Source: an uncultured Candidatus Poseidoniales archaeon (GTDB taxonomy: Archaea > Thermoplasmatota > Poseidoniia > Poseidoniales > Thalassarchaeaceae). Taken from it: a stretch of 51,404 nt of DNA. The position numbers and the translations under genes were made by a program. Below the pieces are notes generated by a model that was not told where the DNA came from, made no database searches, and saw only the letters and a list, made by a program, of their open reading frames with translations. The stretch lies in contig CABXQY010000002.1 of NCBI GenBank assembly GCA_902514485.1, forward strand, positions 1 to 51,404, given 5' to 3'. Below, piece after piece: positions 1,360 to 27,925 of this stretch (within the stretch, counting starts at the first letter, position 1; the number at the start of each line of letters is the position of its first letter).

Positions 1360-4300
1360 TCATACTTCAGTGAGTTGGTCTATTCCAGCGTCACAGTGTA
1401 AACAATGGCTTTTTTCCATAATATTGCAACCTTGTACCTGACCATTCATGTGATATCTAGCCCCACATTCAAGACAAGCCCAAGTTTCACCAATAATTAC
1501 ATCTGCACTACATATCCAACAAGGAACTCCACTGGATTCTTCAGAAACATCTTCTGGCATAATCTGTTGGATTATTTTTTCTGGAATCAATGAGTTAATT
1601 GACCCTTCACGACGTAAATAAATAGTCAAACCAACTCCTCCTCCGAGTAGTATGATTATTATGATAATAATGAGTATTAAATTAATAGTTCCCATACTGT
1701 CGGAGGTTGCAGCGGGTAATACATCAATTTCTACATCTAATGAGGAACCAGTAATATCATCTGAATTTAAGAACGAAACCGTGACTACCCCATCAGTTCC
1801 TTTAGAGGGTGTATATGCAATTTCTACTGAACGTGTTTCACCGGGCCTCAAGTTAACAAATGAACTATCGAGTATTAATTCATTCCAATTATTGGGGGCT
1901 TCCAACTTCAAGATTTCTGAAATATCTGAATTACCTACATTCTGTAATTCAAGGGAAAGAGTAGTTTGGTAACCTTGCGGGGAAGGGTTTTGTTCGACTA
2001 TACTCCAAATAACTTCATTCACAGAATCAACATAAAGAGAAATTGTATTTTCAGAAGTTAGTCCCTCTCCGCTGAGAATTAGAGAAATTATCGGCTCGGA
2101 ACCTGCCTCAGCAGATAATGGAATTATAAGATTACAAATGATTGTTATCGTTGATCCTGAAGAGATTGTGGGATTACTATTTTGACACGAATATTCCCAA
2201 TCATCATTTGGTACATCCATAGAGACAGTTGGTCTCCATGTCATTGTACCATCGTTAGTGACTTTCCACAGTAAATCGAAACCAATACCACCTACAGGAT
2301 GTGAATCTACTCCGAGTGGAGTATCTGCTGAAGTCCCATCTGGTAATGCGACTTGATAGAATTCTATCGTAGGAACCGCCCCAGATAGTACATCAATTGT
2401 CCGGTTCCAGTCTATAGTAAATCCGTCCTCTGTAACAAATCTTAGCTTTAACTCACCACTCTTGGCTAGACCATTGCCTGTTATTGAAATCGGTAAATCA
2501 AATTGAGTTCCAGACGATACTATGAATGAGTTCTGACTACCTGTAAATGACCAACCATTAGGTTTAGAAAGAATATACGGGGTTAATTCTAAATCTCGAT
2601 TACCCTGATTATTGAAATTTATTTGCCATTCAAGTGTATCGTCAGCTGAAACCTCATATTCTGTTCCATCAGAAGTTGGAGTTAAAGTGACTACATCAAT
2701 ATTATCTACTATTAGAGTTATATCTTCGGACCAAGAATCCGAACTCACACGAGAGTGGACAGAAACTGCAGCGGAAAATACCGTACCTGCGGGAATCATC
2801 GCCCCAGGCGGATTGATGGTGATGTCAATTGTTCGAGATTCCCCTTTACCTAGAGAACCAGTAGACCCATGAGATGATCCAGCGAAAGAACCTATCGAAT
2901 CTAACCCAAGGCTCCAACCAGATGGTGAAATTAGTTCTACGTCATAAGTTTGTGGCCCGTTACCATCGTTCTGAATTTGAATCTGGAGCGGAGTTGAAAC
3001 AAGAGGATTTACTTTAATTTGACTAGTAGGAATTAGAACTTTTGCATCAGATAATAGTGGAACTTCTAGATATATCTCAAATTCGGATTCAATCTGATTT
3101 TCAACATCTGTTCCAGTAATCAACATTCTGTAAAGTCCTGGTTCAGGCGGTGCCGGATGTATCACTGACAGAATTACACTAGTAGATTCGGCAGGCATTA
3201 AATTAAACGTATTATTAGAAAATGATGAAAACCAGTCAAATTCAACTCCATCCTGCATCCTAATTGGTTCAGATACCTCAATTGTTGCATTTGTCTCAAA
3301 TAATGCAGTATTTGTCAAATCAAGGGACCAAGTAGTAGAACTATCAGTAGTCCCTTCAATTAATTTCATTGGGGCCTCACTAGTAACTCTGACACCAGGG
3401 ACGCTAACTATGACAATCTGAGTATATTGATTATTCGTATCAGATACTTCTTCAACCAAATCATTAGGGTCTATGTAGAAAGATACAGTATTTTCGCCCT
3501 CTACATCAGGAGTCCATTGCCATGTCAACTCAGCAGATTCTCCCGGAGAAAGACTGAGAGTTTTTGTACTAATTGTGGCACTATTAACCGCCGCTAATAC
3601 AGATAATTCAGGAATACTTCCTGCACCCTGATTAATCAAAGATATTGAAAATTCTACCTCTTCATCAACTTGAGGGATTGGCACTGATAACTCAAAAGAA
3701 TCGGATATAAATGTTGGGTCGGGATCTAAATCATTTACATTGACACCTCTAACTGCAAGGGAATAAGGTTGGTAGAAATTACTACCTCCATGAGATGAGT
3801 CTCTAACTCTAACAGTCCAAGTACCAACTGCAGCATTGTCAATAAGTACGACTTCAACATTGTTCTTCGAGTCTTTCTGGCCATTCGCTACTGACTCCCC
3901 ATTAGTGAAAACATTGCCTTTGAATAGTAGACCATTTGGATTAGTAATTTCTAAATCTAAATCATTTCTTAATTGGGTTGACGATGATGATGAACCTGGA
4001 TAATCAGACCAAGCTAGAACTACTTTGAGTTCCTCGCCACCTCTTGTAATATCGAATGAATAGTCACTAAACTGACCTGATGACAATCTAGATCTGTCAT
4101 CTACAAATATACCTACATCACTTTCAGGAATTAAGGAATTTACTAGATTGACGCGTCCCCATCCCTCGTTATTATTTGGTATGTCACGAACACCCATATC
4201 TTCCGCGCCTAATATCAATAATGCCTTAATCAGAGCGGCTTGAGGGGCGGGTCTAGATGCAATTTCCATTAGGTACTCGCGGACTAAAACGGCAGCCCCT

Positions 4301-5898
4301 GCTGCTGCTGGAGTAGCCATTGAAGTACCGCTATATTCTAGGTACCAATTATTGCTCCAAGAACCTGATGCACTACTCGCTTCTTGAGATTTGCAAGAAC
4401 GGACATAATCTCCCGGGCCCACTAAATCAGGTTTTATCCTGCCGTCATCAGTTGGTCCTCGGCTACTCCAATAATACATATCATCTGGTGCGCCGTTATA
4501 TCTGTTGACATGACCACCTACAGTTATGACATTCTTAGCAGTCCCTGGAGATGAAATTCCATCGTTCCTCTCATTGCCGGCTGCGAACAATACGGTCATT
4601 CCTTGGTATTGCCAATATTGATCCCATGTTGAGACTCTATCGTCAGCATCTTCAGACGAGGTTGTATATTCACCACCAGTTGGAGAACCCCAACTATTTG
4701 TATGCAAACGAGCACCTGCATTATATGCTTCATTAAGCATACTATTAATTCCAATAGAGTATAGAGCTCCTGAATCATCATCTTCCATTGCTTGGAAGTA
4801 AAGATTTGCTTCAGGTGCTATCCCTTGGTATTGGCCGTTACTCCTCATTCCATCACCAAGTACAGTACAGGCGACATGAGTTCCATGACCATCAGAAGGG
4901 TCGGCAGTGGAAGAGTCTCCTGGTGTAACCGAATCAAGACCTGAAATTCGACCATTGAAGTCTCCGTGGTCATCATCTAATCCTGAATCACCTACTGCAA
5001 TCTTTTGTCCAGAACCGTTTAATCCAGTAATAAAAAAATCTTCAACTGTATCTATACCCATATGATTTCTTGCTTCATTATTCATTAACTTAAGAATCGG
5101 AACTGGTGCAAGGTAAGAAACTGAAGGATGTTTTATTATTTCTGAAATATCATTTGTTTGAATTTCCCCCCATATAATTCCTGTATCGGGAGACCATGAG
5201 TTGGACAGCCAAGAGTTAGCAACATCTTGTAAATTGTCATCCAAAGATGATGTTTGACGAACTAGTTCTGAATTCTTCCAGCCAACTATCTCAACAACTA
5301 GACTTTGATCATTTGGAGCATCGCGGAGTGCTGAATGAATTAGAAGCCCTGCTGGAACCTCATGTACCGATTCCACTGAATTAAGTGATAGGAGATTTTT
5401 CAGTTGCTCAGAATTACCTTGAATTAAATATCCTGATGGTGGAATTGTAGAACGGATTTCAATTCCTGAAATTTCCATTATTTCCATTCTAGCATCCCAT
5501 AGTCCGGTATCTCCATCAATTATTACAATAGCAAGATCCATTCTTGAAAATGATATTTCTTGAGAAAGATAGACACTAGGGATTAGTCCGGAATGAGTAT
5601 AAACGCCGATAGTGGAGTCTGCACTTTCGGAACGCAATATCTCAGAACTGTTAGATATTCTTGGAGTTCCTAGATCTGAGATACTATTTGGGTCAGGAGA
5701 TATTTCTATCCTTTGGATTGATTCATCTAACTTCTCTGAGAATGAATCGGATGATTCATAGACATCATCACTAAGAGGTATGTAAGAAAGAAGAAGGACG
5801 CCCAAGATTAGGCATACTGTTCGCTTAGACATAGAGTTGCGCCTTCTAAAGACTGTTTTGAGCATATGGGTTAGTTGAACCCCTAGGAGTTCATACAT
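1360..5898 (-). CDS. Subtilisin-like (S8) serine protease, membrane-anchored, with a cytoplasmic Cys-rich zinc-ribbon tail
   Basis: 1512-aa ORF. The subtilase triad motifs occur in order: AVGDSGLDDDHGDF (Asp), HGTHVACTVLGDG (His), SGTSMATPAAAGAAVLV (Ser). A signal-like MSKRTVCLILGVLLLSYIPLS suggests the ATG at 5830-5832 may be the true start. A long Ig/CARDB-like region is followed by a TM (INLILIIIIIIILLGGGVGLTIYL) and an 83-aa tail with CWIC..CLEC..C..CLHC. Confidence 0.9.
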   Translation of the reverse strand: MYELLGVQLTHMLKTVFRRRNSMSKRTVCLILGVLLLSYIPLSDDVYESSDSFSEKLDESIQRIEISPDPNSISDLGTPRISNSSEILRSESADSTIGVYTHSGLIPSVYLSQEISFSRMDLAIVIIDGDTGLWDARMEIMEISGIEIRSTIPPSGYLIQGNSEQLKNLLSLNSVESVHEVPAGLLIHSALRDAPNDQSLVVEIVGWKNSELVRQTSSLDDNLQDVANSWLSNSWSPDTGIIWGEIQTNDISEIIKHPSVSYLAPVPILKLMNNEARNHMGIDTVEDFFITGLNGSGQKIAVGDSGLDDDHGDFNGRISGLDSVTPGDSSTADPSDGHGTHVACTVLGDGMRSNGQYQGIAPEANLYFQAMEDDDSGALYSIGINSMLNEAYNAGARLHTNSWGSPTGGEYTTSSEDADDRVSTWDQYWQYQGMTVLFAAGNERNDGISSPGTAKNVITVGGHVNRYNGAPDDMYYWSSRGPTDDGRIKPDLVGPGDYVRSCKSQEASSASGSWSNNWYLEYSGTSMATPAAAGAAVLVREYLMEIASRPAPQAALIKALLILGAEDMGVRDIPNNNEGWGRVNLVNSLIPESDVGIFVDDRSRLSSGQFSDYSFDITRGGEELKVVLAWSDYPGSSSSSTQLRNDLDLEITNPNGLLFKGNVFTNGESVANGQKDSKNNVEVVLIDNAAVGTWTVRVRDSSHGGSNFYQPYSLAVRGVNVNDLDPDPTFISDSFELSVPIPQVDEEVEFSISLINQGAGSIPELSVLAAVNSATISTKTLSLSPGESAELTWQWTPDVEGENTVSFYIDPNDLVEEVSDTNNQYTQIVIVSVPGVRVTSEAPMKLIEGTTDSSTTWSLDLTNTALFETNATIEVSEPIRMQDGVEFDWFSSFSNNTFNLMPAESTSVILSVIHPAPPEPGLYRMLITGTDVENQIESEFEIYLEVPLLSDAKVLIPTSQIKVNPLVSTPLQIQIQNDGNGPQTYDVELISPSGWSLGLDSIGSFAGSSHGSTGSLGKGESRTIDITINPPGAMIPAGTVFSAAVSVHSRVSSDSWSEDITLIVDNIDVVTLTPTSDGTEYEVSADDTLEWQINFNNQGNRDLELTPYILSKPNGWSFTGSQNSFIVSSGTQFDLPISITGNGLAKSGELKLRFVTEDGFTIDWNRTIDVLSGAVPTIEFYQVALPDGTSADTPLGVDSHPVGGIGFDLLWKVTNDGTMTWRPTVSMDVPNDDWEYSCQNSNPTISSGSTITIICNLIIPLSAEAGSEPIISLILSGEGLTSENTISLYVDSVNEVIWSIVEQNPSPQGYQTTLSLELQNVGNSDISEILKLEAPNNWNELILDSSFVNLRPGETRSVEIAYTPSKGTDGVVTVSFLNSDDITGSSLDVEIDVLPAATSDSMGTINLILIIIIIIILLGGGVGLTIYLRREGSINSLIPEKIIQQIMPEDVSEESSGVPCWICSADVIIGETWACLECGARYHMNGQVQGCNIMEKSHCLHCDAGIDQLTEV

Positions 5899-5916
5899 TG
5901 AGGAAAAATAGACGCA

Positions 5917-6477
5917 CTAAAAAAAGTCTATTCCAGTACCGTGACTGAATTGTTCCATCTTCCATTCACCGACTAAGTATTGCAATTCTATTTTAGAATC
6001 CTCTTTATTATTTTTAGTATATTGTAACTCAATATCTATTGTATAGTTTTCCCAAACAGATTCGCCAATTATTATTAGTTCTAAAGCATCACCAGAAACT
6101 GAACTATGTGCAGGAAGAGAAGATTTATTGAATGTAGTTCTATCTATCTCAATATTATCTGAATCTATAAACCGAATGATTAGAGTTAAGTCACTGATAT
6201 CTCTACTTCCATCATTATCAATCTGAGTTAGTATCACATGGCCTGAACTACTCTGGATATAAACAACATCAATTGTTACCTTTTCATATGGAACAACCCA
6301 AGTTAAAGCTACGAAAGTGGCAGCAAATAGCATTAGAGCCACGAATGACACTAGAATTACTCTCAATGGAGATATACGATCCATTGAATCTTCTAATCTA
6401 ACTAAAACCTCATGCGCAAACTCTTCATCAAGAGTTTCCTCTACTTCTTGATTACGTGATTTCTCAAGCAAGCCCAT
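5917..6477 (-). CDS. Small single-pass membrane protein, translationally coupled to the upstream giant ORF
   Basis: 186-aa ORF. Its ATG (6475-6477) directly abuts the TGA (6478-6480) of the upstream gene, reading TGAATG on the coding strand. It has one TM (VILVSFVALMLFAATFVALTWVV) and a ~120-aa ectodomain. No family was recognised. Confidence 0.6.
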   Translation of the reverse strand: MGLLEKSRNQEVEETLDEEFAHEVLVRLEDSMDRISPLRVILVSFVALMLFAATFVALTWVVPYEKVTIDVVYIQSSSGHVILTQIDNDGSRDISDLTLIIRFIDSDNIEIDRTTFNKSSLPAHSSVSGDALELIIIGESVWENYTIDIELQYTKNNKEDSKIELQYLVGEWKMEQFSHGTGIDFF

Positions 6478-9400
6478 TCAACCACCCCCTTCAGTTAGTG
6501 TCGCAATTACTGTGAGTATAGCAGAGGTAAATGGTTCAGGAACGAGTAAATGGTGCGTTGAGCCACTCAAACCCGGTACTAAATTAAGAATTGAAAGGTC
6601 AGAAGAAAGACCATTTACGCCAAGTGTAGTTCCAGTGGGAACACCTCCTGTAGTTTGTGCGTCAATTAGTACACCTCGAATTTGTATATCTCTTCCCGCG
6701 AATTCTGTTGTAACTCTAGCAGATGCTATGATTTTTCCACCATCTACATCATCGACTTCGATAACACTGTATGGCCCTACTAATTCCCTGATATGCAATG
6801 TTGCACTTCGAAGGTTCTCTCCCATTGCCTCCATTTCTTCAAGGAAAACTGGAGGTGTTCCGACTTGGCTAGATCCTGTAGGGACATCATTCATTCTGAC
6901 ATAAATTCTTTCAACACCACTTCCACCTGAACGAATTTCTAAACCAAAATCATTGGTTGGTTTAATTATCAATTTATCAGTCATACCCTCAGCTAACAAA
7001 ATAATATCTCCTCGAGAATTTATAGCTCTACCAAATGCCTCAATATATAGCGACATTCCATCATCTGAAGATGTAAAATCAAGGTTTGGTAAACCTTGGA
7101 ATGCAAGATTTCTAGTTATATCGAAATTCATTTCTGGAGCCGTTGTAAGATTAATATATCCAGGTATATCTTTCAAAAATACTGTAGCAGGCCACCAAAA
7201 ACCATCCATCCATTGCATCTGTTGTAACATTAACGAGCCTACTGCAAATCCTTCTATTCTCTGTTCTTCTGGAACACTCATATCTATAGAAATCGCTGTA
7301 CCCAGACTTGCCTGCAACGAAATAGACTTTGGAATCTCATTAATCAGCATCTCAGTTCTGCTTTGCGATTCTCGATTAATCAACATCATATGGATCCAAT
7401 CAAGCCTCTCTGACAACCCGAACTGAGCTCCTGTTGAGACCTGTGTTATACCTCCTGAATCTCGAATCTCGAAAACAGCATCAAGGAATAAATTTGTTGA
7501 TTTCCCCGGCTCAAGACCTTGCATTGTCAATAACATATCTTGACCATTGACCCCATAAGCATGAATCATAAATTCTTCACGCCCTGGTTCCCAACTATCC
7601 AATGATGCTTGAATATACCAATCCTCACCATTAACAAGAGTATTGCGAGAAATTGATAAATCAATTAATGGAGGTAAACCGGGTAACCAAGTCTTGAGAT
7701 GGAATCCTTCGGACAATCCGTTAGGAGATGATTGGAAAGAGATTCCATGCACCCATGGGGGTTCGTTAATAACCGGATCACCATAAGTTGCTTCTACAAT
7801 CAAATCGAATGAACTATCAGATTCTAGTTGTAAAGCGTATGAGAATGAATCATCAACTTCTTCAGTACCTGTTGAAATATCACTAGTAAACCCTGCAAGA
7901 ACTGAATTTATGGATCGGCCAAAGTTAGAGAATCCACCTATGAAGAAGGCTACACCCGATAGCCCCTTGGTGGAATTAAATTCTGGAAGTACTAATTCAG
8001 AACTGTTGTCTTTACCTGTTGGAATTTCGACTGAAAGATGTGATGGAAGAGGATCAATTAGAGCTAACGCAGACAGTCCTGATGAATCAGCAGTTGGAGC
8101 ATTATCTATATTGATACTCATAGGCCTGTCCCCTGCAGACTTCAAGAAAGCAGTACCTCGACCGGATGCTCCCAGGGCACCTTCTTCAATCGGAGATATC
8201 CATCCTAATTCTTTAATTCCTGTCAGACGTGTTGATATCGTAGATGTTTCATTTATTGAATCGTGATGGAATAAGAAATGGTCGCCAGTCATTGTTACTG
8301 GTTCGGATGCATTACTAATCTGGACTTCCACAGTACCTATTGGTTTTTCAGCAATAAAACTTGTTTGTTCACCAAACTCAAAAATAAACTCCGCAGGCAT
8401 ATCATGAATATTTGCACCTTGCCTCTGATTGCCATCAAGACCAACATAGGTCATCAATTCAATACCATCATTAGCGGCATAAGTTAGAGATTCTTCATCT
8501 ATTAGAACAGATATATTATTAGGGATATCTGATAAATGTAAGCTCTGAAAAGAGATGTTATCGATAGAATTACTATCGTGTTCAATAAAAGAAAATCTGA
8601 AAGGTTCACTAGAATCTGTGATTAGCCCAATTGATTGAGTTTCTAATACTTCATCATCACTAAATGTAAATTGTGAAAGACCACTAAACCTTACACTGGA
8701 TGCTACTGGAACTAATGGATCTCGAACTCCAAATTCTCCCATTACCTGATCTAGAACTCGATCTTTAGAAATTATTATATGATTACCGAGAGTTACTGGA
8801 TGAGGGCTAGAACCTATTTGCACAGCAAGTTCGTCAATGTGCATATTTACCCTATCGGCTAGTAAATTATCAGTCATAATTAAATTTACATCCCGCCCTG
8901 CAAATGAGTTAATTCCACCACTACCCGCATCTCCTGTAAGAACAGAGACTACTTCACTTGGAACTGAATTAATTATATCACCAATATCTAAAAACAGATT
9001 TACCAGATTAAGTATCACTGAATCTAAAATTTTGGACAGAAAATCAAGATTTTCTCCGCTGTCAAGACTTGTATCAGTTGAAGATGAACTACCCAGCTCA
9101 AATGAACCGTACAATGCTATCGAGGTTGGAATATTTTTCAATTCTAAGTGTATCTTACTGTGATCAGTAATTATATCTCCACGTTTATGCCATGAATCAT
9201 AATCTATAGACTGGATACTCTCTACAGAGCGAATAAGGACAAGAGTTTTTGGCGGATATGCAGGGTTTACAGGCAAAGTAGGGTCGTCAACATTCTGTGT
9301 TTCATCTCTAGAGAAGTTCTTTATTGCAATTATCATGCCTAATTTTTCTGGCTGACCACCAGGTAGTTCTGGTGATGATTTAGAGCCTAGCATGGTGAAT

Positions 9401-19754: not shown

Positions 19755-19845
19755 GATTTCGATATAAATAGCCCCACCACACCTGTAACGCACTTGCCAG
19801 ATTTTATTGCAATAAAATCCTAAAGTAGAGATTATGATGATTTTT

Positions 19846-19871
19846 TGGTCCGCGCTCCCGGACTTGAACCG
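19846..19871. repeat. att copy 2 (attL of the 8-kb element)
   Basis: TGGTCCGCGCTCCCGGACTTGAACCG is identical to 27822-27847. Confidence 0.9.
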
Positions 19872-20001
19872 AAGTCCGGTACCAGATGAGGCGTTCGTGC
19901 TCCTGAGGGAGTTGTCACGACAGTGCCTGGAGGAAATCCAGAGGGGCAGAACTGCAACTACTAGGCAGCTGCTCTCTATGCTTGCGGAGGTGAGAGGATG
20001 A
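19846..20001 (+). other. int: int(C): detached 3' end of the element integrase gene
   Basis: It reads WSALPDLN|RSPVPDEAFVLLRELSRQCLEEIQRGRTATTRQLLSMLAEVRG, with the TGA at 19999-20001. The codon usage is GC-rich like int(N). Joining base 27821 to base 19846 gives one continuous ORF. Confidence 0.8.
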
Positions 20002-20054: not shown

Positions 20055-20122
20055 TGGTCAACCATAGAAGGTAACCATGGTTATTTTTCATCTCATGGTT
20101 GTCAGGTTGCAAACAACCATGG
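20055..20122. promoter_or_regulatory. Cluster of four (C)AACCAT(GG) half-sites, a candidate operator or iteron
   Basis: The copies are CAACCAT at 20059-20065, the perfect palindrome TAACCATGGTTA at 20072-20083, and the inverted pair CATGGTTG (20094-20101) / CAACCATG (20114-20121) with a 12-nt spacer. The cluster lies between the int(C) stop and the RBS (GAGGTGA, 20133-20139) and ATG of the next ORF. Confidence 0.4.
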
Positions 20123-20143
20123 AATAATTTTCGAGGTGATTGT

Positions 20144-20896
20144 ATGATACGCTTCAATCCGGATACTGAAAGGAAGTTGAAAGAAGATTTGGCAAATGTT
20201 GGCAAAGCAAACCAGGGTTACAACATCTATGCTACCGTCAAAGGTTCGGCCAATCATCGAAGGATAGGAACCTTGGATTCGCAAAGAACGGCGATAACCT
20301 TCGATGGTACGAACAACCTTGCACCCATCATCAAGAAAGCGGAGTTGGAAGAAGGTGCTGTTGTTGGGGATGTTGCACTGGTCCCAATCCCGGTGGAGAC
20401 TATCCAATCCGCAGCAGGAAGGCTGAGCGAGACCAGGCGTGGCAAGGCAAGGAGTAACCTACTATCATCCATCAAGTCCCTAATCCAAAGAGGCGTGAAG
20501 ACGAATCCGACCAAGGACCCACTCAGGGTGATTGAGGAGAAGGACAGGGAGATCGATCATCTGAGGAGGATCATCAACGCCAACAACGGGCTGTATGCAG
20601 ACCAAATCGCGAGGGGGATGATGATTCCAAGCGTGGATGACTACCCATTCGATCCGAAGAAGCTCGTTCGCCTCGCCGATGGGTTCGATGGGGTGGCAGT
20701 TGAGATGGAGAGAAACAAGCTGAGGATTTACTTCGTAGAGGGAAACTATGCAGGTGAGTCAGGCATTCCCTCCATGACGGGCAGGCAGAGGGAGATGCGC
20801 AGGGCAATCAACCGTGGATGGGTGGAGGTCAGGCTCTGCCATCTGATATTGCATTCTGATGGTAGTCATGAATGGGAAATCACGGAGGAGCGATAA
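20144..20896 (+). CDS. Hypothetical protein (element-borne, GC-rich)
   Basis: The ATG at 20144 is preceded by GAGGTGA 4 nt upstream. It encodes 250 aa (MIRFNPDTERKLKEDL...). The composition is GC-rich like the integrase, and no motif was recognised. The ORF-track start at 20099 lacks an RBS. Confidence 0.6.
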   Translation: MIRFNPDTERKLKEDLANVGKANQGYNIYATVKGSANHRRIGTLDSQRTAITFDGTNNLAPIIKKAELEEGAVVGDVALVPIPVETIQSAAGRLSETRRGKARSNLLSSIKSLIQRGVKTNPTKDPLRVIEEKDREIDHLRRIINANNGLYADQIARGMMIPSVDDYPFDPKKLVRLADGFDGVAVEMERNKLRIYFVEGNYAGESGIPSMTGRQREMRRAINRGWVEVRLCHLILHSDGSHEWEITEER

Positions 20897-20940
20897 TTTG
20901 GTTAATTTGATAGCCATCAGGCGTTTAGAATTTGAATAAC

Positions 20941-22935
20941 ATGGATGGGGATAAAGTTGATTCCTATGAAAAAATCCCAATGGGATATTGGAAAAATCCC
21001 GACAACCATCTACTATGGTTTGAAGATTTTAGACGTCATTATGAATTAACCACATTCGAGAGTTTATACACTATTAATCAGAAGATGATTCGAGATTTTA
21101 ATGGAATCACATTAGTAAAAGAATATTATAAATCAATAATAAATTTGGTGAAATCGCTATATCCTGAATATGAATGGAAATCCTACAAATTCCCAAGACG
21201 GGCCAATGGTTATTGGGAGATTGAACGTCATCGTATAGAATGGTTTGAAGACTTTAGAAAGCACTATAATTTGGGATCATACAACAGCCTCTATGATATT
21301 AATTCTAAAATGATTGATGATTATTATGGTAAGACATTGAGAAATAATTACTACAAATCAATATTTATCATGGTACAATCACTTTGTCCTGAATTCGAAT
21401 GGAAATTTTACAAATTTCGTTATCTCAAAGGGCACTGGGGGGAGATAGAAAATCAAAAGTTATGGTTTGAGGACCTCCGTGATTTTTACGGTTTAACAAC
21501 AGTTGAGGATATTTATTCCCTAAATTTGAGGATGATTACTGATTTTTATGGGATCACATTAGTTAAGGAATATTATGGATCAATCCTGAATATGGTTGAA
21601 TCAATCTGTCCTGAATACGAATGGAAATTTTACAAATTTAGAGGTTCGAAGGGGTACTGGAGCGATCTTGAAAACCAAAGAATATGGTTTGAAGATTTAA
21701 GGGAGAACTACAATCTAACAACATCTGAGAGTCTTTACCAGATTAATAGTAAAATGATAAATGAATTCTATGGTGGTAATATTTGGAATTTCTACTCTAA
21801 AATACCTGAATTAGTTATGGCTCTATGCCCTAATCATGATTGGAAATTCTACAGATTTAGAGGTTCGCAGGGACACTGGAGTGATATTGAAAACCAGAAA
21901 TTATGGTTTAATGATCTAAGAGAACACTATGGGTTTGATTCAAACGAGGACTTGTACGATCTTACTGTGTCCAAAATTTCAGATTTCTATGGGATTACTT
22001 GTGTTGTTGCCCTCTATGACGGATCCCCGAGTGAATTAGTGCGAGCTTTGATCCCTGAATACGATTGGAAAATCTACAAATTTTCGAATACACCTCAGGG
22101 GTACTGGGACGATCGGAAAAACCTTCAATCATGGTTTGAGGACATGAGGAGGCATTATGGGTTTAACAAAAATGAGGACCTGTATAACATAAACCTGAAG
22201 ATGATTTTGGATTTCCATGGTAGGACTCCAATTTCAAAGTTTAACGATTCAAAAATAAATCTCATTAGACATCTAATCCCAGAATTTGATTGGAAGGAAT
22301 ACAAATTTGTTCAAACGAGGAAGAATTATTGGGATGATATCGAGAACCAGAAATCATGGTTCAGAGACTTCAGAGAACACTATGGATTGGATACATACGA
22401 GAGCCTTTACGATGTCAGTTCAAAGATGATAAGCGACTACTATGGAAGTGGGTTACTGACCAGGACAAAAACAAATTACGGAGGAAGCCCGTCTTTATTC
22501 GTCCCAACTATGTGTCCAGAGTATGACTGGGACCTTTCTAAATTCGCCAGTAACAGAAAAACGCAGAAATCCCTATTCAAAATTCTAAAGCAGAAGTTTC
22601 CAGATGCGATATGGGAATACAGGACCGAGGTTCGTTGGGATTTTAGGAACAAGATAGGGTACGATATTTTTGTTCCCTCAATGAATCTGGCCTTTGAGGG
22701 ACAGGGCCATCAACACTACATTCCAATAGAGATGTGGGGAGGTAGTGATGCTTTAACAAAGCAAAAACAAAGGGATGAGCAAAAGTCAGATTTGGCTCAG
22801 GAACTGGGGATAAGATTGGTTATCGTTCCTTTCTGTGATCTGGATCCTGAATTACCCAAATGGCAATCCAGCTGGGAGTCATTAGTTGAAATTTGCAAAT
22901 TACAGGGAATAAATCTGAGCTTGAATGCTCTGTGA
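20941..22935 (+). CDS. Seven tandem ~75-aa repeats fused to a C-terminal Vsr/DUF559-like (PD-(D/E)xK-type) nuclease domain
   Basis: The ORF-track start at 20932 is TTG; the first ATG is at 20941. The repeats span 20980-22560, with consensus GYWxDxENQKxWFEDLRxHYGLxTxESLYxINxKMIxDFYGxTL..YY.S...LV.SLCPEYEWKFYKF. The C-terminal 124 aa read SLFKILKQKFPD..GYDIFVPSMNLAFEGQGHQHY..QRDEQKSDLAQELGIRLVIVPF. This matches the D..(V/F)E.(D/Q)G..H...D..R...L...G..V.RF layout of Vsr/DUF559-type endonucleases. Confidence 0.75.
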   Translation: MDGDKVDSYEKIPMGYWKNPDNHLLWFEDFRRHYELTTFESLYTINQKMIRDFNGITLVKEYYKSIINLVKSLYPEYEWKSYKFPRRANGYWEIERHRIEWFEDFRKHYNLGSYNSLYDINSKMIDDYYGKTLRNNYYKSIFIMVQSLCPEFEWKFYKFRYLKGHWGEIENQKLWFEDLRDFYGLTTVEDIYSLNLRMITDFYGITLVKEYYGSILNMVESICPEYEWKFYKFRGSKGYWSDLENQRIWFEDLRENYNLTTSESLYQINSKMINEFYGGNIWNFYSKIPELVMALCPNHDWKFYRFRGSQGHWSDIENQKLWFNDLREHYGFDSNEDLYDLTVSKISDFYGITCVVALYDGSPSELVRALIPEYDWKIYKFSNTPQGYWDDRKNLQSWFEDMRRHYGFNKNEDLYNINLKMILDFHGRTPISKFNDSKINLIRHLIPEFDWKEYKFVQTRKNYWDDIENQKSWFRDFREHYGLDTYESLYDVSSKMISDYYGSGLLTRTKTNYGGSPSLFVPTMCPEYDWDLSKFASNRKTQKSLFKILKQKFPDAIWEYRTEVRWDFRNKIGYDIFVPSMNLAFEGQGHQHYIPIEMWGGSDALTKQKQRDEQKSDLAQELGIRLVIVPFCDLDPELPKWQSSWESLVEICKLQGINLSLNAL

Positions 22936-23104
22936 TTAGATTGTGTCCCAGAACACCGGGCTCCACTCAAGCTCAGCCGAGGTCAAACCCATGATTCCAC
23001 ATTTGCAGCACCTCTAACTCTGAAGGCAGCTCCCGTTGCACAGCCGTTGAAGGAATTACCGATACCCCCTACGCCAATGAGTTCAAAGAATGATTTACCT
23101 TATT

Positions 23105-25156
23105 TTAGTACTTCATCAACTTCTTTAGATTCCTAGAATAACGCCTAACATCAAACATGGGTAATGAATTCCTTAACCATGAAGTAAATTCAGATGGGAC
23201 TGGAATAATGATTTTTTCACCTCTTCTTTTGGGGCCTATACTTTCTGGGATTAGATCCATCTGTCTGTTTACTTCATATCTATCTTCGTTATTTGTAAAG
23301 GATAAGTACAGTTCTTTCTGTGGAGTGACTCGCCAATTAACATCACCGTTGTTTATCATAGATAGCCAATCAAGACCATTTCCATCGACGACTTTTTCGA
23401 GGGGTTGATTAGGAAAGAAATCAGGTATTTCGATACCGGCAATCTCGTACAGTTCCGTCATAACTAATCGACCTATGTTCATACAATCAGTATGGTCATA
23501 TTTATCGTCAATTCCATTGTTAAGCAATTCTAAATATTTCTTTGAAAAATATAAAAATATCGGGTTTTCTTCACTCATTATTTTAGAAACATGTTTGATA
23601 TTAGCTGTATTATCTTCGAATCTAGCATCCATAACGACTTCTTTCATTCTACCTTTCAGTTGTCCTTGTGGTATTCTTTTATTCGAGGTTACAATTAGTT
23701 GACTATGATTTTTTCCTGATTCCCACCAATTATCCCAATAGGAACGTACAATTTGATCCATGTATCTCTTACCCCATTTCGAATCACTTATATCATCATA
23801 AATTATTGGGAAAAGAGAACTCCAGGTTAGTAAATTCTTAACTTTTGTAGCAGAGAAATCATCATCATCATATGCTGCAACTTTGTTGTTGCTTCCTGTC
23901 AATAGTCTACTACAATATTGTAATAGATATGTTTTCCCATTTTTTGTGTTACCATAAATAGCTAGAGGTTTTGGTCCACGCTGATATTCCCAACCTAGGA
24001 TTCTTTTGCCTTGTTTCATGTATGCGTGATGGAAAGGAGATGTCAAGAAATACAACATCACTTCGTATATACTCATCTTAGCAAAACGAGGATTCTTACA
24101 ACTAGCTCTATCTATAGTCTCGACATATGAGTGAATTCCATTGATTCCTTTTTGGATTTCAGCAACATCATAGTTAGATGCTGTTCTGTTAATTGTCTCA
24201 CTACCGACCCTAAGTGATACAAAGTCATCATTCACGGTCATTAATGGGAATGTGCTAACTCTAGTATCAAGAAATGGACGTGTTGTAGCCCTAATTTTTC
24301 TACCCTCTCTTTGGACACCTGCTGGTGCTAAAATTCTTACAACTTCTTCTAAAACTGCTTCATTGGCCTCTGTTGTCAATTCGGTCATGATGATATCAGG
24401 ATCTGTGGAATCATTCAGTGCTCTTTCTTGGAACTCGTGAATGATAGCATGTACTTTAGTTACATCTGCTGATGATGATGAACCAGTGTAAGATACCCAG
24501 CGCTCAACAACTTCAATATCTGGAGCGTCATCTTTGTTTAGTAGGTCTACCAATTCGTCTAAATATTCCTCAGAATTTGAATGATACCAGTAATAGGTCT
24601 CACATAATTCCAGATATTCATCAGAATTTTTATATTCTCCTTGGATATTACGCACTCGTACTTGATTAGATTGTTTTCCAGATATACCTGAACCTCTTGA
24701 AGTCAGATTAGCTGTACCAAAGATATCTGAAAACTCGTTATCTTTCTCTGCTAATATCCACTTTTCATGGAAGGTTCGATTATTTTTTGGTACTCTAACA
24801 GTTAAACGGCCTTCTTCTATTAGTTTGGCAAGTCTAAGGAAAACCTCGGGTTCTGTGCTAGATCGATTCTTTGTAACAACTGAATCTCCAACAATAATTT
24901 CTGCTTTTTGAATGCCATATAAATCAAATAAATCAACAATGAAGTCTACTCTTTGGACATACATTACCATTCTAATTTCATTAAATCCTTCGATATGAGT
25001 CTGCAATGGTCGCTGCGGAGTTACTCTGAATATCTTTGATTCGAGAATCTCAAACTCAGGTTTTTTTGGTTTAATATCAGGGCTGAGATCACCCCAAAGT
25101 TTTCTCTCGTTTGTTGTACTGGTTTCTTCCTCAATTTTTTCTAATTTATTTTCCAT
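23105..25156 (-). CDS. PLD-family (single HKD) nuclease domain fused to a D5/P4-like superfamily-3 helicase; putative element replication protein
   Basis: 683-aa ORF. The HKD motif is FHEKWILAEKD..FGTANLTSRG (aa 129-155). Walker A is AIYGNTKNGKTYLL (aa 399-412) and Walker B is LFPIIYDD (aa 448-455). SF3 motif C is QLIVTSNKRIP (aa 486-496). Confidence 0.75.
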   Translation of the reverse strand: MENKLEKIEEETSTTNERKLWGDLSPDIKPKKPEFEILESKIFRVTPQRPLQTHIEGFNEIRMVMYVQRVDFIVDLFDLYGIQKAEIIVGDSVVTKNRSSTEPEVFLRLAKLIEEGRLTVRVPKNNRTFHEKWILAEKDNEFSDIFGTANLTSRGSGISGKQSNQVRVRNIQGEYKNSDEYLELCETYYWYHSNSEEYLDELVDLLNKDDAPDIEVVERWVSYTGSSSSADVTKVHAIIHEFQERALNDSTDPDIIMTELTTEANEAVLEEVVRILAPAGVQREGRKIRATTRPFLDTRVSTFPLMTVNDDFVSLRVGSETINRTASNYDVAEIQKGINGIHSYVETIDRASCKNPRFAKMSIYEVMLYFLTSPFHHAYMKQGKRILGWEYQRGPKPLAIYGNTKNGKTYLLQYCSRLLTGSNNKVAAYDDDDFSATKVKNLLTWSSLFPIIYDDISDSKWGKRYMDQIVRSYWDNWWESGKNHSQLIVTSNKRIPQGQLKGRMKEVVMDARFEDNTANIKHVSKIMSEENPIFLYFSKKYLELLNNGIDDKYDHTDCMNIGRLVMTELYEIAGIEIPDFFPNQPLEKVVDGNGLDWLSMINNGDVNWRVTPQKELYLSFTNNEDRYEVNRQMDLIPESIGPKRRGEKIIIPVPSEFTSWLRNSLPMFDVRRYSRNLKKLMKY

Positions 25157-25494
25157 GTTCTAATCACCTTGGCTTCTTGCGTCGAATCCCGAGGTAGCCA
25201 ACATCGGGCTTTGTTGGCCGCATATGTCGGGATATAAAGATTAAGTAAAGCAAGAAATTACTAATCCCTTTAGGGGATTATACTCAAAACGTGTTTCAGA
25301 ATATTCTTGTTTCTTCCTTAATTACACCTAATCGGAAGTGGTACCCATGTGGCTACTCCTAGAAATTATGTCATCTGATACTATATTCAGAAGGAACTAA
25401 TGAATGGGAGATAGTTGAGAATTCCAAAAATCCCATATAAACGTACTTCTCAAAGTACAAATTTAGCAGATATTAAAGTTATAATTTTAACACT

Positions 25495-26202
25495 TTAATT
25501 TTGTATCCTTTTGGTGCTTGGGGAGCCTATACCTTTAACTCCATCCGTTCTCAAGATTTCTCTTAGCTTTTCGGCTTCTTCTTGTTCCAATTGCCTTTGC
25601 TCAGTTTTAGCCTTCTTATCGGCTTCTTCTTCCTTCTGTTTCCGTTGGATAATAGTATCTACTCCTTGTTCGGAAATCCCATCAATGATCATTTTAGTTG
25701 CTTCAACATTATTCAGATATTTCTCGACTAAGCGTTTAGCCTCCTCAATTGTTGTATCTTTTTTGCCCACAGACTCCATCAGAGTGTAATGTTTCTTATT
25801 TTCCAAAATAAACTCACAATCCTCGATTGAAAGTTTATCTTTGTGATTTGGCTCTAAGAGAAATCGTTTAATTGCATCGATGGTTGATTTGTTACTAACG
25901 AGTTTCTTGAAAAATCCATTTGCATATGCTAAGTCGTCAAAGTTTGTTTTTACCGGATTTGCTAGTTGATGTACTTCCTCGGCTATTTTTTGATTTTTAC
26001 AGAAATCTCTGAATGGCTTCTCCTTAGCGGCCTTATCTTTGGCTCTCTTTTCTTCTTCTTTTCTCCGATAAATATGTGCATGCACATGACAATAACCACC
26101 GTCATTTTTAGTTGCAGGAAGTTTGCAAGGTCTTTTGGCTTCGAAATGCTGAACAATGTGCTTGCAGGCGGATTTTGGATCTCTTCGTCGCCGCGGAGTC
26201 AC
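25495..26202 (-). CDS. Basic protein with an N-terminal Cys/His cluster and K/E-rich coiled-coil segments (putative DNA-binding)
   Basis: 235-aa ORF with a GTG start. The N-terminus reads RRRRDPKSACKHIVQHFEAKRPCKLPATKNDGGYCHVHAH (C-x12-C-x11-C-x-H-x-H). Charged stretches follow: KEEEKRAKDKAAKEK and QRKQKEEEADKKAKTEQRQLEQEEAEKLRE. Confidence 0.55.
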   Translation of the reverse strand: MTPRRRRDPKSACKHIVQHFEAKRPCKLPATKNDGGYCHVHAHIYRRKEEEKRAKDKAAKEKPFRDFCKNQKIAEEVHQLANPVKTNFDDLAYANGFFKKLVSNKSTIDAIKRFLLEPNHKDKLSIEDCEFILENKKHYTLMESVGKKDTTIEEAKRLVEKYLNNVEATKMIIDGISEQGVDTIIQRKQKEEEADKKAKTEQRQLEQEEAEKLREILRTDGVKGIGSPSTKRIQN

Positions 26203-26576
26203 AAAACTCTACGCTAGGATATGCGTTAGAAAGTTATCTCCTTTGAATATCTGTACTTACTCATTTCAATTACCTCGGAGTAATTCGGTAGTCATATCTC
26301 TCAGCATTACCTTAAATTCATCTGATCTCTCTTTCTCTCCTTGCTCAAATAAATAATATTCAGATCAATGGAATGGTATTTTTCGATATAAAAAATGATA
26401 ATTAATGAGTGGATATTAGTTGATAATTGGATTTTTTAGTAGCACTACACATTGTAGAAGAAGTAATTGAGAATCCCAACGGCATTGTCGTTTGAAGCAA
26501 TAGGCATTCATGTTCAAACTCTGCATCATAGTACTGACAATAACCTTTCATACCTTCTCTTCGCTTCCAATATTCC

Positions 26577-27914
26577 ATGCCAGAGATACAGCCATGTAAT
26601 ACAGCCAGCCAAGATGAATACCCATACTGGGTCTCCGATGGAATGGACCAAGGAGAACCCTCGATTTACGATAATGTGATAATCTGGCTCAGAAGCCCTA
26701 GAAGATGGAAGGACAGGAATCTGAAGCGCTACAAAAACATCAGGTATTCGGCTCAGAAGTTCAGGCATACCCTAAGCAGCTTTACTCCCCACGACTTGAG
26801 AGACGATCAGAGGTATATCGAGTTCATCGAGTCATTACAGAGTGAGATTGAGAGTTCCGATCTGGCGCAAACGACTCTGGACGGGTACCTCGGCTATCTG
26901 ACTGGCAAGGTGTTGAAAAATGGAGAGGTCAATCCCCGGATAGTCGAGGAAATCAAAACCCAAATTTTTCTCATTAAGAAGGGGCTGAAGAGGAGAGAGG
27001 TTTTCCATAGGGGAATCGAGGAGGACGAGATCGTCGAGTTCATGAGGTCCCTAGACGAGATGTGCGAGAACCCAGAGACCGCCCCGAACCTCTCGAGGAT
27101 TGCGAACCCAAATTCCTCGAACGCTAAGTCAAAGCGGACTAGCCACCACCTGCTACTAGCACTGAGGGCGTATGCGTACCTGACTCTGGTAAGCGCAGGC
27201 AGGGCAAATTCTATCCGCCGAATCAGGATTTCAGAAGTTAATGAGGACTTTTTCATCAGAGAAATAAGCAAGATGAGAACTTACTCGGAGGCGGTCCGCA
27301 CCAGCATGCCCAAGTGGGTGTTCCAGAGGGTCGAGCCTTACCTAGAATACTGCAGGGAGAACCACCCGGATGCCATATTCCTGTTCAGCGAAGACGAGAA
27401 CAAAAGAGGGAGGGGGACAATCAACCCAAAGACTCTCCAAGAAATAAAGAAAGGTGCGATGAAGAATATCGGAATGGAGCCGACGAGCGCTGGCGGACTC
27501 TATAGGCTTCACGACCTGAGAACGGTTTGGTGCGATTGGATGTACAAGGGAGGCGCCTCAGTGGAGCAGATGTCCGTGTTCCTAGGCCACTCCTCCCCCA
27601 AAGTGACCACCAAGTACTACTTCGCACCGAAACACAAGGAGAGAATGAGACAGGAAGGATGGGAAGCAGGTATGAAAGGACTTGAGGCTCTCTTACAGAT
27701 ACGTGAGAATGCGGATAGGAAAATAGAGGATTTGTACAGGCAACTGCATGAAATCGGCTACTTCTCAGATGGGAAAGGAGGAGGAGTATACCCTGACTGC
27801 TGGGATGAAGTTGATGATAATTGGTCCGCGCTCCCGGACTTGAACCGGGGACCCCCTGATGGCTGCCTACAACCATGTGTTTCCAGTCTACAGTCAGGTG
27901 CTCTAGCCAACTGA
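26577..27914 (+). CDS. int: Tyrosine recombinase/integrase, int(N) form; the last 30 codons are read from the antisense strand of tRNA-Tyr
   Basis: 445-aa ORF. The catalytic boxes are LVSAGRANSIRRIRISE (Arg), LHDLRTVWCDW (HxxR) and FLGHSSPKVTTKYYF (His and the nucleophilic Tyr). The frame crosses the att core as WSALPDLN at 27822-27845 and stops at 27912-27914 inside the tRNA gene. Confidence 0.9.
   Translation: MPEIQPCNTASQDEYPYWVSDGMDQGEPSIYDNVIIWLRSPRRWKDRNLKRYKNIRYSAQKFRHTLSSFTPHDLRDDQRYIEFIESLQSEIESSDLAQTTLDGYLGYLTGKVLKNGEVNPRIVEEIKTQIFLIKKGLKRREVFHRGIEEDEIVEFMRSLDEMCENPETAPNLSRIANPNSSNAKSKRTSHHLLLALRAYAYLTLVSAGRANSIRRIRISEVNEDFFIREISKMRTYSEAVRTSMPKWVFQRVEPYLEYCRENHPDAIFLFSEDENKRGRGTINPKTLQEIKKGAMKNIGMEPTSAGGLYRLHDLRTVWCDWMYKGGASVEQMSVFLGHSSPKVTTKYYFAPKHKERMRQEGWEAGMKGLEALLQIRENADRKIEDLYRQLHEIGYFSDGKGGGVYPDCWDEVDDNWSALPDLNRGPPDGCLQPCVSSLQSGALAN
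27822..27847. repeat. att copy 3 (attR), within the intact tRNA-Tyr
   Basis: TGGTCCGCGCTCCCGGACTTGAACCG is the antisense of the T-loop, 3' T-stem, 3' acceptor strand, A73 and CCA. Confidence 0.9.
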
Positions 27915-27925
27915 GCTAAGCGCGG
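27822..27925 (-). tRNA. tRNA-Tyr (anticodon GUA) with a 27-nt intron at the canonical 37/38 position and an encoded CCA
   Basis: The minus strand folds by hand. The acceptor is CCGCGCT/AGCGCGG and the D arm is GCTC-AGTTGGCTA-GAGC. The anticodon stem is CCTGA/TCAGG and the loop is CTGTAG|intron|A, with anticodon GTA at 27889-27891. The intron is 27861-27887. The variable loop is GGGTC, the T arm is CCCGG-TTCAAGT-CCGGG, the discriminator is A, and CCA follows. The C1-G72 pair is the archaeal/eukaryal tRNA-Tyr identity pair. Confidence 0.85.

Follow-up and report, generated by a model that had tools for sequence, protein, structure and literature searches.

We analysed a 51,404-nucleotide (nt) stretch of contig CABXQY010000002.1 from an uncultured Candidatus Poseidoniales archaeon of the Thalassarchaeaceae (Marine Group II, MGII); this whole stretch is referred to below as the window. 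It carries, within a small element integrated at a tRNA gene, a gene encoding a protein of 683 amino acids (aa), which sequence comparison identifies as a homolog of AgaP, the phospholipase D (PLD) partner of haloarchaeal prokaryotic Argonautes (pAgo). In this protein a PLD nuclease domain is joined to a helicase-like ATPase, and it is probable that it acts as an ATP-powered nuclease of the defence type. The original prediction, made from the nucleotide sequence alone, had described it as a PLD nuclease fused to a superfamily 3 (SF3) helicase of D5/P4 type and as the only replication-type gene of the element, i.e. either a new replication initiator nicking through a phosphohistidine intermediate or a defence-type nuclease-ATPase. 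The features of the gene are listed below, with the basis of each assignment in brackets.

23105-25156, minus strand: AgaP-family gene, encoding a PLD nuclease, a linker/N-domain, a Cch-like AAA+ ATPase and a winged-helix-like C-terminus (open reading frame (ORF), homologs, BLASTP, dN/dS)
24632-25024, minus strand: PLD-superfamily nuclease domain, aa ~45-175 (Foldseek, and Pfam matches of homologs at equivalent positions)
24707-24769, minus strand: single HKD catalytic motif, H130-x-K132 ... G147-T-x-N150 (translation; conservation in homologs)
23987-24619, minus strand: helical linker, small alpha/beta N-domain and two long helices, aa ~180-390 (AlphaFold2 (AF2) model; predicted local distance difference test score (pLDDT) 92.7)
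23477-23974, minus strand: P-loop (AAA+/SF3-like) ATPase core, aa ~395-560 (Foldseek, BFVD matches)
23930-23953, minus strand: Walker A, GNTKNGKT, aa 402-409 (translation; conservation)
23792-23812, minus strand: Walker B, FPIIYDD, aa 449-455 (translation; conservation)
23648-23698, minus strand: motif C/sensor-1, LIVTSN (aa 487-492, N492), and candidate arginine finger R503 (translation; conservation)
23108-23404, minus strand: C-terminal alpha/beta domain, aa ~585-683, predicted to be winged-helix-like (order of secondary structures in a high-confidence model)

The ORF starts with ATG and is intact, and the nuclease and helicase motifs that had been read from it proved to be genuine and correctly placed. 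The HKD stretch (aa 130-150) reads HEKWILAEKDNEFSDIFGTAN in translation, and the window protein retains all residues of the PLD site (H130, K132, G147, T148 and N150). Across 52 aligned homologs, whose identity to the window protein is ~22% (19-30%, with a single exception at 60%), residues H130, K132, N150, G402, G407, K408, P450, N492 and R503 are invariant, and the Walker B residues D454 and D455 are kept in at least 90% of the sequences. Since the catalytic residues are conserved across such diverse homologs, the motifs are not chance matches. Those of the ATPase part follow a compact, SF3-style order, from Walker A and Walker B to a motif C with a terminal Asn and, beyond it, the candidate Arg finger.

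The pair formed by pAgo and a PLD protein in haloarchaea has been described as the APAP system, whose PLD partner was named AgaP (Cheng et al. 2024, mLife, PMC11442185). According to this study, (i) ago and agaP of N. pellirubrum are co-transcribed, (ii) AgaP alone is toxic in Haloarcula, the toxicity being relieved by pAgo, (iii) residues H105, K107, G157, S158 and N160 of AgaP are needed for toxicity and for plasmid restriction, and (iv) in protection from a single-stranded DNA virus the active site of pAgo is mainly responsible, while AgaP enhances the effect (PMC11442185). We recovered the AgaP of N. pellirubrum as a 717-aa ORF (positions 5870-8023 of locus L066, i.e. 121345-123498 of plasmid pNATPE02, accession no. 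NC_019963.1). BLASTP aligned the window protein with it both in the C-terminal half (aa 333-664; 27% identity over 336 aa, E=2e-32) and at the N-terminus (aa 49-137; 33% over 90 aa, E=6e-9). The two proteins share the N-terminal PLD domain with its HxK and G[ST]xN motifs, and the positions of Walker A, Walker B and the conserved Asn and Arg. The residues on which toxicity depends in N. pellirubrum are the equivalents of those in the HKD motif of the window protein. On the basis of these alignments, the window protein is a homolog of AgaP. The ATPase, which makes up two-thirds of the protein, is not discussed in the published work: the APAP paper treats AgaP as a PLD protein, with no mention of an ATPase, Walker motif or helicase domain within it (PMC11442185), and the literature library searched yielded no further paper on the family. 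PLD proteins had appeared among pAgo-associated nucleases in earlier surveys (PMC6299218); they are not mentioned by Makarova et al. 2009. The protein named "Agap" in the AmAgo system (PMC11162769) was rejected as a relative, as it is an unrelated HEPN RNase. In the RefSeq/PLSDB table agaP of N. pellirubrum is not annotated as one gene; the table contains a 375-aa "hypothetical protein" over its C-terminal half, and two antisense hypothetical ORFs are listed with it.

Searched alone, the window protein gave no significant match in Pfam, NCBIfam, PHROGs or the PDB sequences, and the domain assignments were therefore tested through homologs and structure. Among the 52 homologs, Pfam matches (E<=0.01) to RE_NgoFVII were obtained for 27, to PLDc_2 for 21 and to Tyr-DNA_phospho for 14. 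In eight homologs with checked coordinates the PLD matches lie at residues ~60-210, and several of these, including P0158, P0202 and P0053, exceed the Pfam gathering score. A first AF2 model (pLDDT 75.5) was used for Foldseek comparison of the N-terminus with the PDB, which returned NgoAVII R (4rct, 1e-6) as the top match, followed by Nuc (1byr, 9e-5) and BfiI (2c1l, 2e-3); phosphatidylserine synthase and Tdp1 were also matched. The N-terminus is thus, as had been predicted, a PLD nuclease domain with a single HKD motif, of the same fold as NgoAVII, CglI and BfiI. With one HKD per chain, dimerisation would be needed to form the active site, as in Nuc and BfiI; these are homodimers with a single active site, and cleave independently of metal ions via a phosphohistidine. 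NgoAVII and CglI pair the PLD nuclease with an NTP-hydrolysing motor protein. In enzymes of the NgoAVII/CglI/BfiI type there is a B3-like DNA-recognition domain and a separate motor of SF2 type, whereas the motor of the window protein is fused and AAA+/Cch-like, no B3-like domain was detected in it, and no methyltransferase gene adjoins it.

The remaining part of the protein (aa 225-683) was modelled separately from a 60-sequence diverse alignment (second AF2 model, maca6d6f8dbad; pLDDT 92.7, predicted template modelling (TM) score 0.89). Its best fold match in the PDB was the Cch helicase of SCCmec (5dgk, E=4.5e-7, ~400 columns), in an alignment that also covers the linker/N-domain region (aa ~180-390). 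Generic AAA+ ATPases (proteasomal Rpt, FtsH, p97) matched at 3e-4 to 2e-3, and the D5-type E5 protein of MPXV (8xj8) and the ASFV PrimPol (8iqh) at ~2e-3, i.e. no better than the former. With the full-length model, matches among the predicted viral structures of BFVD (1e-7 to 5e-3) comprised Toprim/DUF927 primase-helicases, D5-like helicase-primases, the C-terminal domain of P4-type primases, VirE and DUF3987 proteins. At the level of sequence profiles, matches of the homologs to helicase families were isolated and weak (DUF927 and RNA_helicase only), and when the family profile was compared with P4 alpha by hhalign, Walker A alone was aligned (probability 3%). The sole result of the close-homolog profile among PDB sequences, HflX, was dismissed as spurious. 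Cch carries DUF927 and has been described as an MCM-like self-loading replicative helicase, a relative of the Rep helicase of SaPIbov1 (PMC7581432). As judged from the model, the C-terminal two-thirds of the window protein is a P-loop ATPase of helicase-like character; its closest structural relatives are the helicases with which mobile elements replicate, first those of Cch/DUF927 type and then those of D5 type. A helicase-like ATPase, as in the original prediction, was confirmed; a strict SF3 assignment could not be demonstrated at the profile level.

The window protein and Cch have a common domain order (N-domain, P-loop core with Walker A/B, sensor Asn and Arg, winged-helix-like end), and their genes ride on integrase-bearing islands. 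They differ in several respects. TM-scores are low (~0.3), and the comparison of sequence profiles gave no significant connection with P4 alpha; at the N-terminus the ATPase is joined to a PLD nuclease and not to a primase or origin-binding domain; and the genomic associations of the AgaP family are with pAgo and other defence genes, while sister elements do without AgaP.

A word-indexed search yielded 51 close relatives (56-99% identity), all of them from marine metagenomes or metagenome-assembled genomes (MAGs) of Thalassarchaeaceae. All but one of these carry a precomputed Pfam tag, PF27394 (Aq_aa27), which is found on nearly all full-length homologs; to judge by its name, this entry refers to a plasmid-borne protein of Aquifex that is uncharacterised. 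A second search of the same kind with the diverse alignment gave almost exclusively the close MGII set again, and a scan of genome contigs found one MAG only, from Thalassarchaeaceae. When 1.8 billion cluster representatives were searched exhaustively with a profile, 365 relatives were recovered at E<=1e-3. Most of them have 640-720 aa and align almost from end to end, so the two-domain architecture is the norm of the family and not a one-off fusion; the fusion, which had been proposed as worth seeking in other archaeal mobile elements, is family-wide. In a comparison with plasmids (tblastn), full-length homologs with 21-25% identity were found on megaplasmids of haloarchaea, where their annotation reads phospholipase D family protein or tyrosyl-DNA phosphodiesterase, and partial matches on plasmids of Acetobacteraceae. 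No match to the family was found in phage genomes (tblastn), and neither the family nor the integrase of the element gave any match when IMG/VR was scanned. Some of the MGII homologs (P0011, P0037, P0038, P0040-P0042, P0044 and P0046) have an additional N-terminal extension of ~50 aa, which has a CxxC...CxxC zinc-ribbon-like character (alignment columns 1-100) and is absent from the window protein.

On MGII contigs the homolog repeatedly adjoins a gene for a ~735-aa Piwi-domain protein, as in the APAP system. This long pAgo resembles CpAgo, CbAgo and TtAgo and keeps the DEDD tetrad. Its gene is placed (i) directly downstream and co-directionally (L001, L002-5, L023, L026, L028), (ii) divergently, with a small helix-turn-helix gene in between (L006-9, L037), or (iii) directly upstream (L019, whose AgaP-family protein is 89% identical to that of the window). 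After dereplication at 95% identity, pAgo was seen in 6 of the 31 MGII groups. When only informative groups are considered (those with both flanks long enough, or with pAgo seen), the proportion is 6 of 9; this count is biased towards pAgo-positive groups, but the linkage is clear. Besides the reference locus of N. pellirubrum, where ago and agaP lie ~65 nt apart, a Piwi gene is adjacent and co-directional in five of eight haloarchaeal plasmid loci, at spacings from an 8-nt overlap to a 140-nt gap. Further neighbours of the homologs are Mre11/Rad50/NurA-like operons, UvrD and PD-(D/E)XK genes, GmrSD and NYN genes, a type IIG restriction-modification (RM) gene, toxin-antitoxin clusters and a conjugative element. 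No primase was present among the Pfam-annotated genes at any homolog locus inspected. A separate primase constantly encoded with the homologs, which would have reduced the PLD domain to an accessory, was therefore not encountered.

Several further associations were observed at these loci. In L069 (3747-10163) the AgaP-family gene starts 2 nt after the end of the SMC gene of an operon that is Mre11-like (metallophosphoesterase) and Rad50/SMC-like, and in L058 (7083-15643) it is located in or beside such an operon, followed by NurA and an ATP-binding protein. These two unrelated loci hint at a second, pAgo-independent partnership. In 12 loci, some with pAgo and some lacking it (loci named: L001, L002-5, L022, L028, L038, L052, L057), a conserved gene of ~396 aa is found upstream of the AgaP homolog in divergent orientation; it has no Pfam match, possibly encodes a C-terminal winged helix-turn-helix, and is absent from the window. 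A gene for an "AAA family ATPase" (~530-565 aa) is present in all five of the haloarchaeal loci L059, L062, L063, L065 and L066, and one for an MBL-fold hydrolase (~750 aa) in two (L059 and L066). These genes are divergently upstream of ago-agaP in four loci, and in L063 the ATPase gene is convergently downstream; the two proteins may be further components of the system.

The window gene lies within an element of 8.0 kb with five genes, bounded by 27-nt exact direct repeats (100% identity) and flanked by host genes including ftsZ and hisS. Apart from the AgaP-family gene, the element and its target comprise the following features.

19845-19871, strand not applicable: attachment site attL, an exact 27-nt direct repeat that duplicates the 3' end of the tRNA (repeat family D10)
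27821-27847, strand not applicable: attR, the second exact copy of the 27-nt direct repeat, within the tRNA gene (repeat search, Rfam)
27825-27925, minus strand: target tRNA gene, 101 nt (Rfam RF00005, 56.4 bits; missed by ARAGORN)
26577-27914, plus strand: tyrosine integrase, with an ORF running through attR (Pfam Phage_integrase, 1.8e-11)
20099-20896, plus strand: 265-aa backbone gene at the attL end, of no recognised family (kept in sister elements)
20932-22935, plus strand: 667-aa cargo protein with about seven 75-aa repeats and an endonuclease-like C-terminus (repeat families D1-D4; phrog_559, phrog_9084)
25495-26202, minus strand: 235-aa cargo protein with a Cys/His-rich N-terminus and a coiled coil, upstream of the AgaP-family gene (weak match to DUF5763, E=0.14)

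The target is probably tRNA-Tyr(GUA), with the anticodon read by eye and an intron of ~27 nt after position 37. Integrase homologs (74-89% identity) are found at the same chromosomal site next to ftsZ in other MGII genomes. Two of these loci are complete sister elements, L073 (att copies at 3342 and 11245) and L076 (att copies at 46 and 9783), whose att is the same 27-mer with at most 3 mismatches and whose 265-aa genes are 74% and 86% identical, respectively, to that of the window. Neither of them contains an AgaP homolog (tblastn) or a large helicase-sized gene. In L074, as far as the contig reaches, there is also no AgaP and no helicase, and a type II methyltransferase and a BglII/BamHI-like endonuclease are encoded between a fragment of the terminal gene and the integrase. 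The 265-aa gene is further present in five AgaP-bearing loci besides the window. The backbone of the element is thus a pair of att sites, with the 265-aa gene at one end, the integrase at the other and a variable region between them. Because sister elements with the same type of integrase, att and terminal gene lack AgaP and any helicase, AgaP is cargo, one interchangeable module beside pAgo, GmrSD, HNH-repeat and RM genes. Searches of Pfam, PHROG and NCBIfam recognised no other helicase, primase or Rep in the 8-kb element. The statement that this is its only replication-type gene is therefore literally true; it is misleading, however, since the sister elements manage without any such gene.

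The two cargo genes beside it were also inspected. The repeats of the 667-aa protein follow the pattern W..ENQ..WFED.R..YG ... PEYEWK.YKF, and its C-terminal ~110 aa (aa 540-650) match PHROG families labelled "HNH/homing endonuclease" (7e-16), with no Pfam match. No relative of this protein was found in any of the fetched related loci (it was a singleton on clustering, and tblastn against L073-L077 was negative); a differently built 530-aa HNH-plus-repeat protein fills a cargo slot in L013 and L018. The 235-aa gene occupies the upstream position that is taken by the pAgo gene in L019. In the intergenic region upstream of the AgaP-family gene, 44 nt (25369-25412) are 77% identical to positions 20837-20880 at the 3' end of the 265-aa gene; the pair translates as CHLILHSDGSHEWEI and CHLILYSEGTNEWEI, and there is no ORF over the intergenic copy, which may be a recombination scar of cargo exchange. 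At the other end of the element, the ORF of the integrase continues beyond attR, antisense to the tRNA gene, and a short ORF at attL (19834-20001, plus strand) has the same phase relative to the att core as the integrase. Excision would therefore replace the last ~22 codons of the integrase gene with ~43 others, giving predicted lengths of 466 aa for the episomal and 445 aa for the integrated form; database homologs are 445 and 427 aa long.

Small elements and neighbourhoods of MGII carry a rotating cargo of long-A pAgo, GmrSD, a type II RM pair, an NYN RNase and HNH proteins (L002-L005, L023, L026, L028, L006-L009, L074). This suggests that the tRNA-integrating islands of uncultured marine archaea are a hotspot of defence cargo. 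No paper linking Argonaute to MGII was found in the literature library searched.

The window copy differs from that of N. pellirubrum in its marine planktonic MGII host, its location on a small element integrated at a tRNA gene, and the absence of pAgo from the element and the window: no Piwi domain or pAgo-like sequence was found anywhere in the 51 kb. Copies with 97-99% identity on six other contigs (L012-L017) are also pAgo-less, with differing neighbouring cargo, and in L015 the whole stretch from the integrase to the terminal gene is visible and has no pAgo. The ratios of nonsynonymous to synonymous substitutions (dN/dS) are 0.04-0.12 against these six relatives and 0.057 against L019. 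Judged by these values, the gene is under strong purifying selection and is not decaying.

A possible mode of action may be outlined from these comparisons. Two copies of the PLD domain would pair to create one metal-independent active site, which would cut phosphodiester bonds through a phosphohistidine intermediate. The Cch-like AAA+ module, with its winged-helix-like end, probably oligomerises on DNA and translocates along or unwinds it, feeding it to the nuclease; the protein would then be a fused counterpart of the split PLD-nuclease-plus-ATPase enzymes of NgoAVII/CglI type. At related loci (the APAP system) the partner of the protein is a catalytically competent long-A pAgo, which targets extrachromosomal DNA and keeps the toxicity of AgaP in bounds; loaded with a guide, it would direct or restrain the activity of AgaP. 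The window copy may act alone, together with the product of an adjacent cargo gene, or with a pAgo whose gene lies in another part of the genome. Inferred in this outline are the dimeric nuclease site, the oligomeric motor and its coupling to the nuclease, DNA as the substrate, and whichever partner the protein may have in this genome.

In our opinion the defence-type, ATP-powered nuclease remains the probable function, and four points weigh against it. The window copy lacks a pAgo in its element and in the 51 kb, although AgaP alone is toxic in Haloarcula, so something must differ here. The spacing between HxK and GTxN is 17 aa, with a likewise short consensus in the family, while a separation of ~50 aa has been reported as distinctive of haloarchaeal AgaPs (PMC11442185); the long acidic insert behind it appears to be specific to haloarchaea. 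The ATPase domain of AgaP goes unmentioned in the APAP paper. Finally, the fold of this module is closest to that of helicases that replicate integrative elements, as would fit an origin of the module in replication. The last point leads to the initiator-helicase of the original prediction, whose PLD domain would nick the origin covalently and whose helicase would unwind the excised circle in the manner of SaPI Rep/Cch. A self-loading replicative helicase of an integrative element (Cch) is indeed the best C-terminal match, the viral fold matches are primase-helicases, the integrase-bearing element has no other recognisable replication gene, and no separate primase accompanies any homolog. We nevertheless consider this role highly unlikely. 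The sister elements (integrase 74-89% identical, same att and terminal gene) contain neither AgaP nor a helicase, and the element family therefore does not need AgaP. Homologs are located in pAgo operons on haloarchaeal megaplasmids of 100-540 kb, one of them restricting a plasmid and a virus; neither phage genomes nor viral contigs yielded a match; and the intergenic DNA flanking the gene (25157-25494, 26203-26576 and 22936-23104) contains no iterons or short direct repeats, only one 11-nt inverted pair. Thus, the AgaP homology, the defence neighbours, the AgaP-less sister elements and the lack of iterons all speak against an initiator, while the AgaP homology, the pAgo and defence neighbours and the status as cargo favour the other option that had been offered, the defence-type nuclease-ATPase. 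A replication module of a prophage or virus was rejected, as no viral gene or viral-contig match was found.

Two further explanations concern the missing pAgo. The protein might be one half of a split APAP system, working only with a long-A pAgo encoded outside the window, which would provide recognition and restraint. The pAgo immediately upstream of the 89%-identical gene in L019, the suppression of AgaP toxicity by pAgo in Haloarcula, and the strong purifying selection, which marks a gene in use, are consistent with such an arrangement. It is rather less plausible in view of the lineage of 97-99% identity, pAgo-less on at least seven independent contigs, and of the family members that occur without pAgo in other settings, among them plasmids of Acetobacteraceae and Mre11/Rad50-like operons, from which we argue that the family does not strictly require pAgo. 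That the gene is a decaying, functionless remnant left after the loss of pAgo is hardly credible: the absence of pAgo from the window and the upstream 44-nt, 77%-identical copy of the 265-aa gene end, which suggests a past rearrangement, could be read in this way, but the 683-aa ORF is intact, every family-invariant catalytic residue is kept, and dN/dS against the six pAgo-less relatives is 0.04-0.12. A more speculative idea, which we put forward only tentatively, is that AgaP is an exapted self-loading helicase of Cch/SaPI-Rep type that acquired a PLD domain, the pAgo-less copies being autonomous ATP-driven nucleases for which pAgo is an optional sensor. If this were true, it would represent a stand-alone module for defence or inter-element competition in abundant marine archaea. 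AgaP may also retain some part in the replication or the destruction of episomal DNA circles, the excised form of the element itself among them.

The identification of the window protein as an AgaP homolog shows that the recently described pAgo-PLD (APAP) defence family is not confined to haloarchaea but reaches into Marine Group II, archaea that are uncultured and abundant worldwide. The protein family itself was already known; what is new is the host lineage and the orphan configuration. The replication-initiator idea would have been the more surprising reading, and it fails on the comparison with sister elements. In MGII, AgaP travels as swappable cargo on small tRNA-integrated elements, together with pAgo, GmrSD and RM modules. 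Its Cch-like ATPase has been under-appreciated, and the single experimental study available for the family passed over it; since this conserved module, with its invariant catalytic residues, constitutes two-thirds of AgaP, the system is probably ATP-driven. The existence of pAgo-less and yet strongly constrained copies raises the question of how a nuclease with toxicity of its own is controlled.

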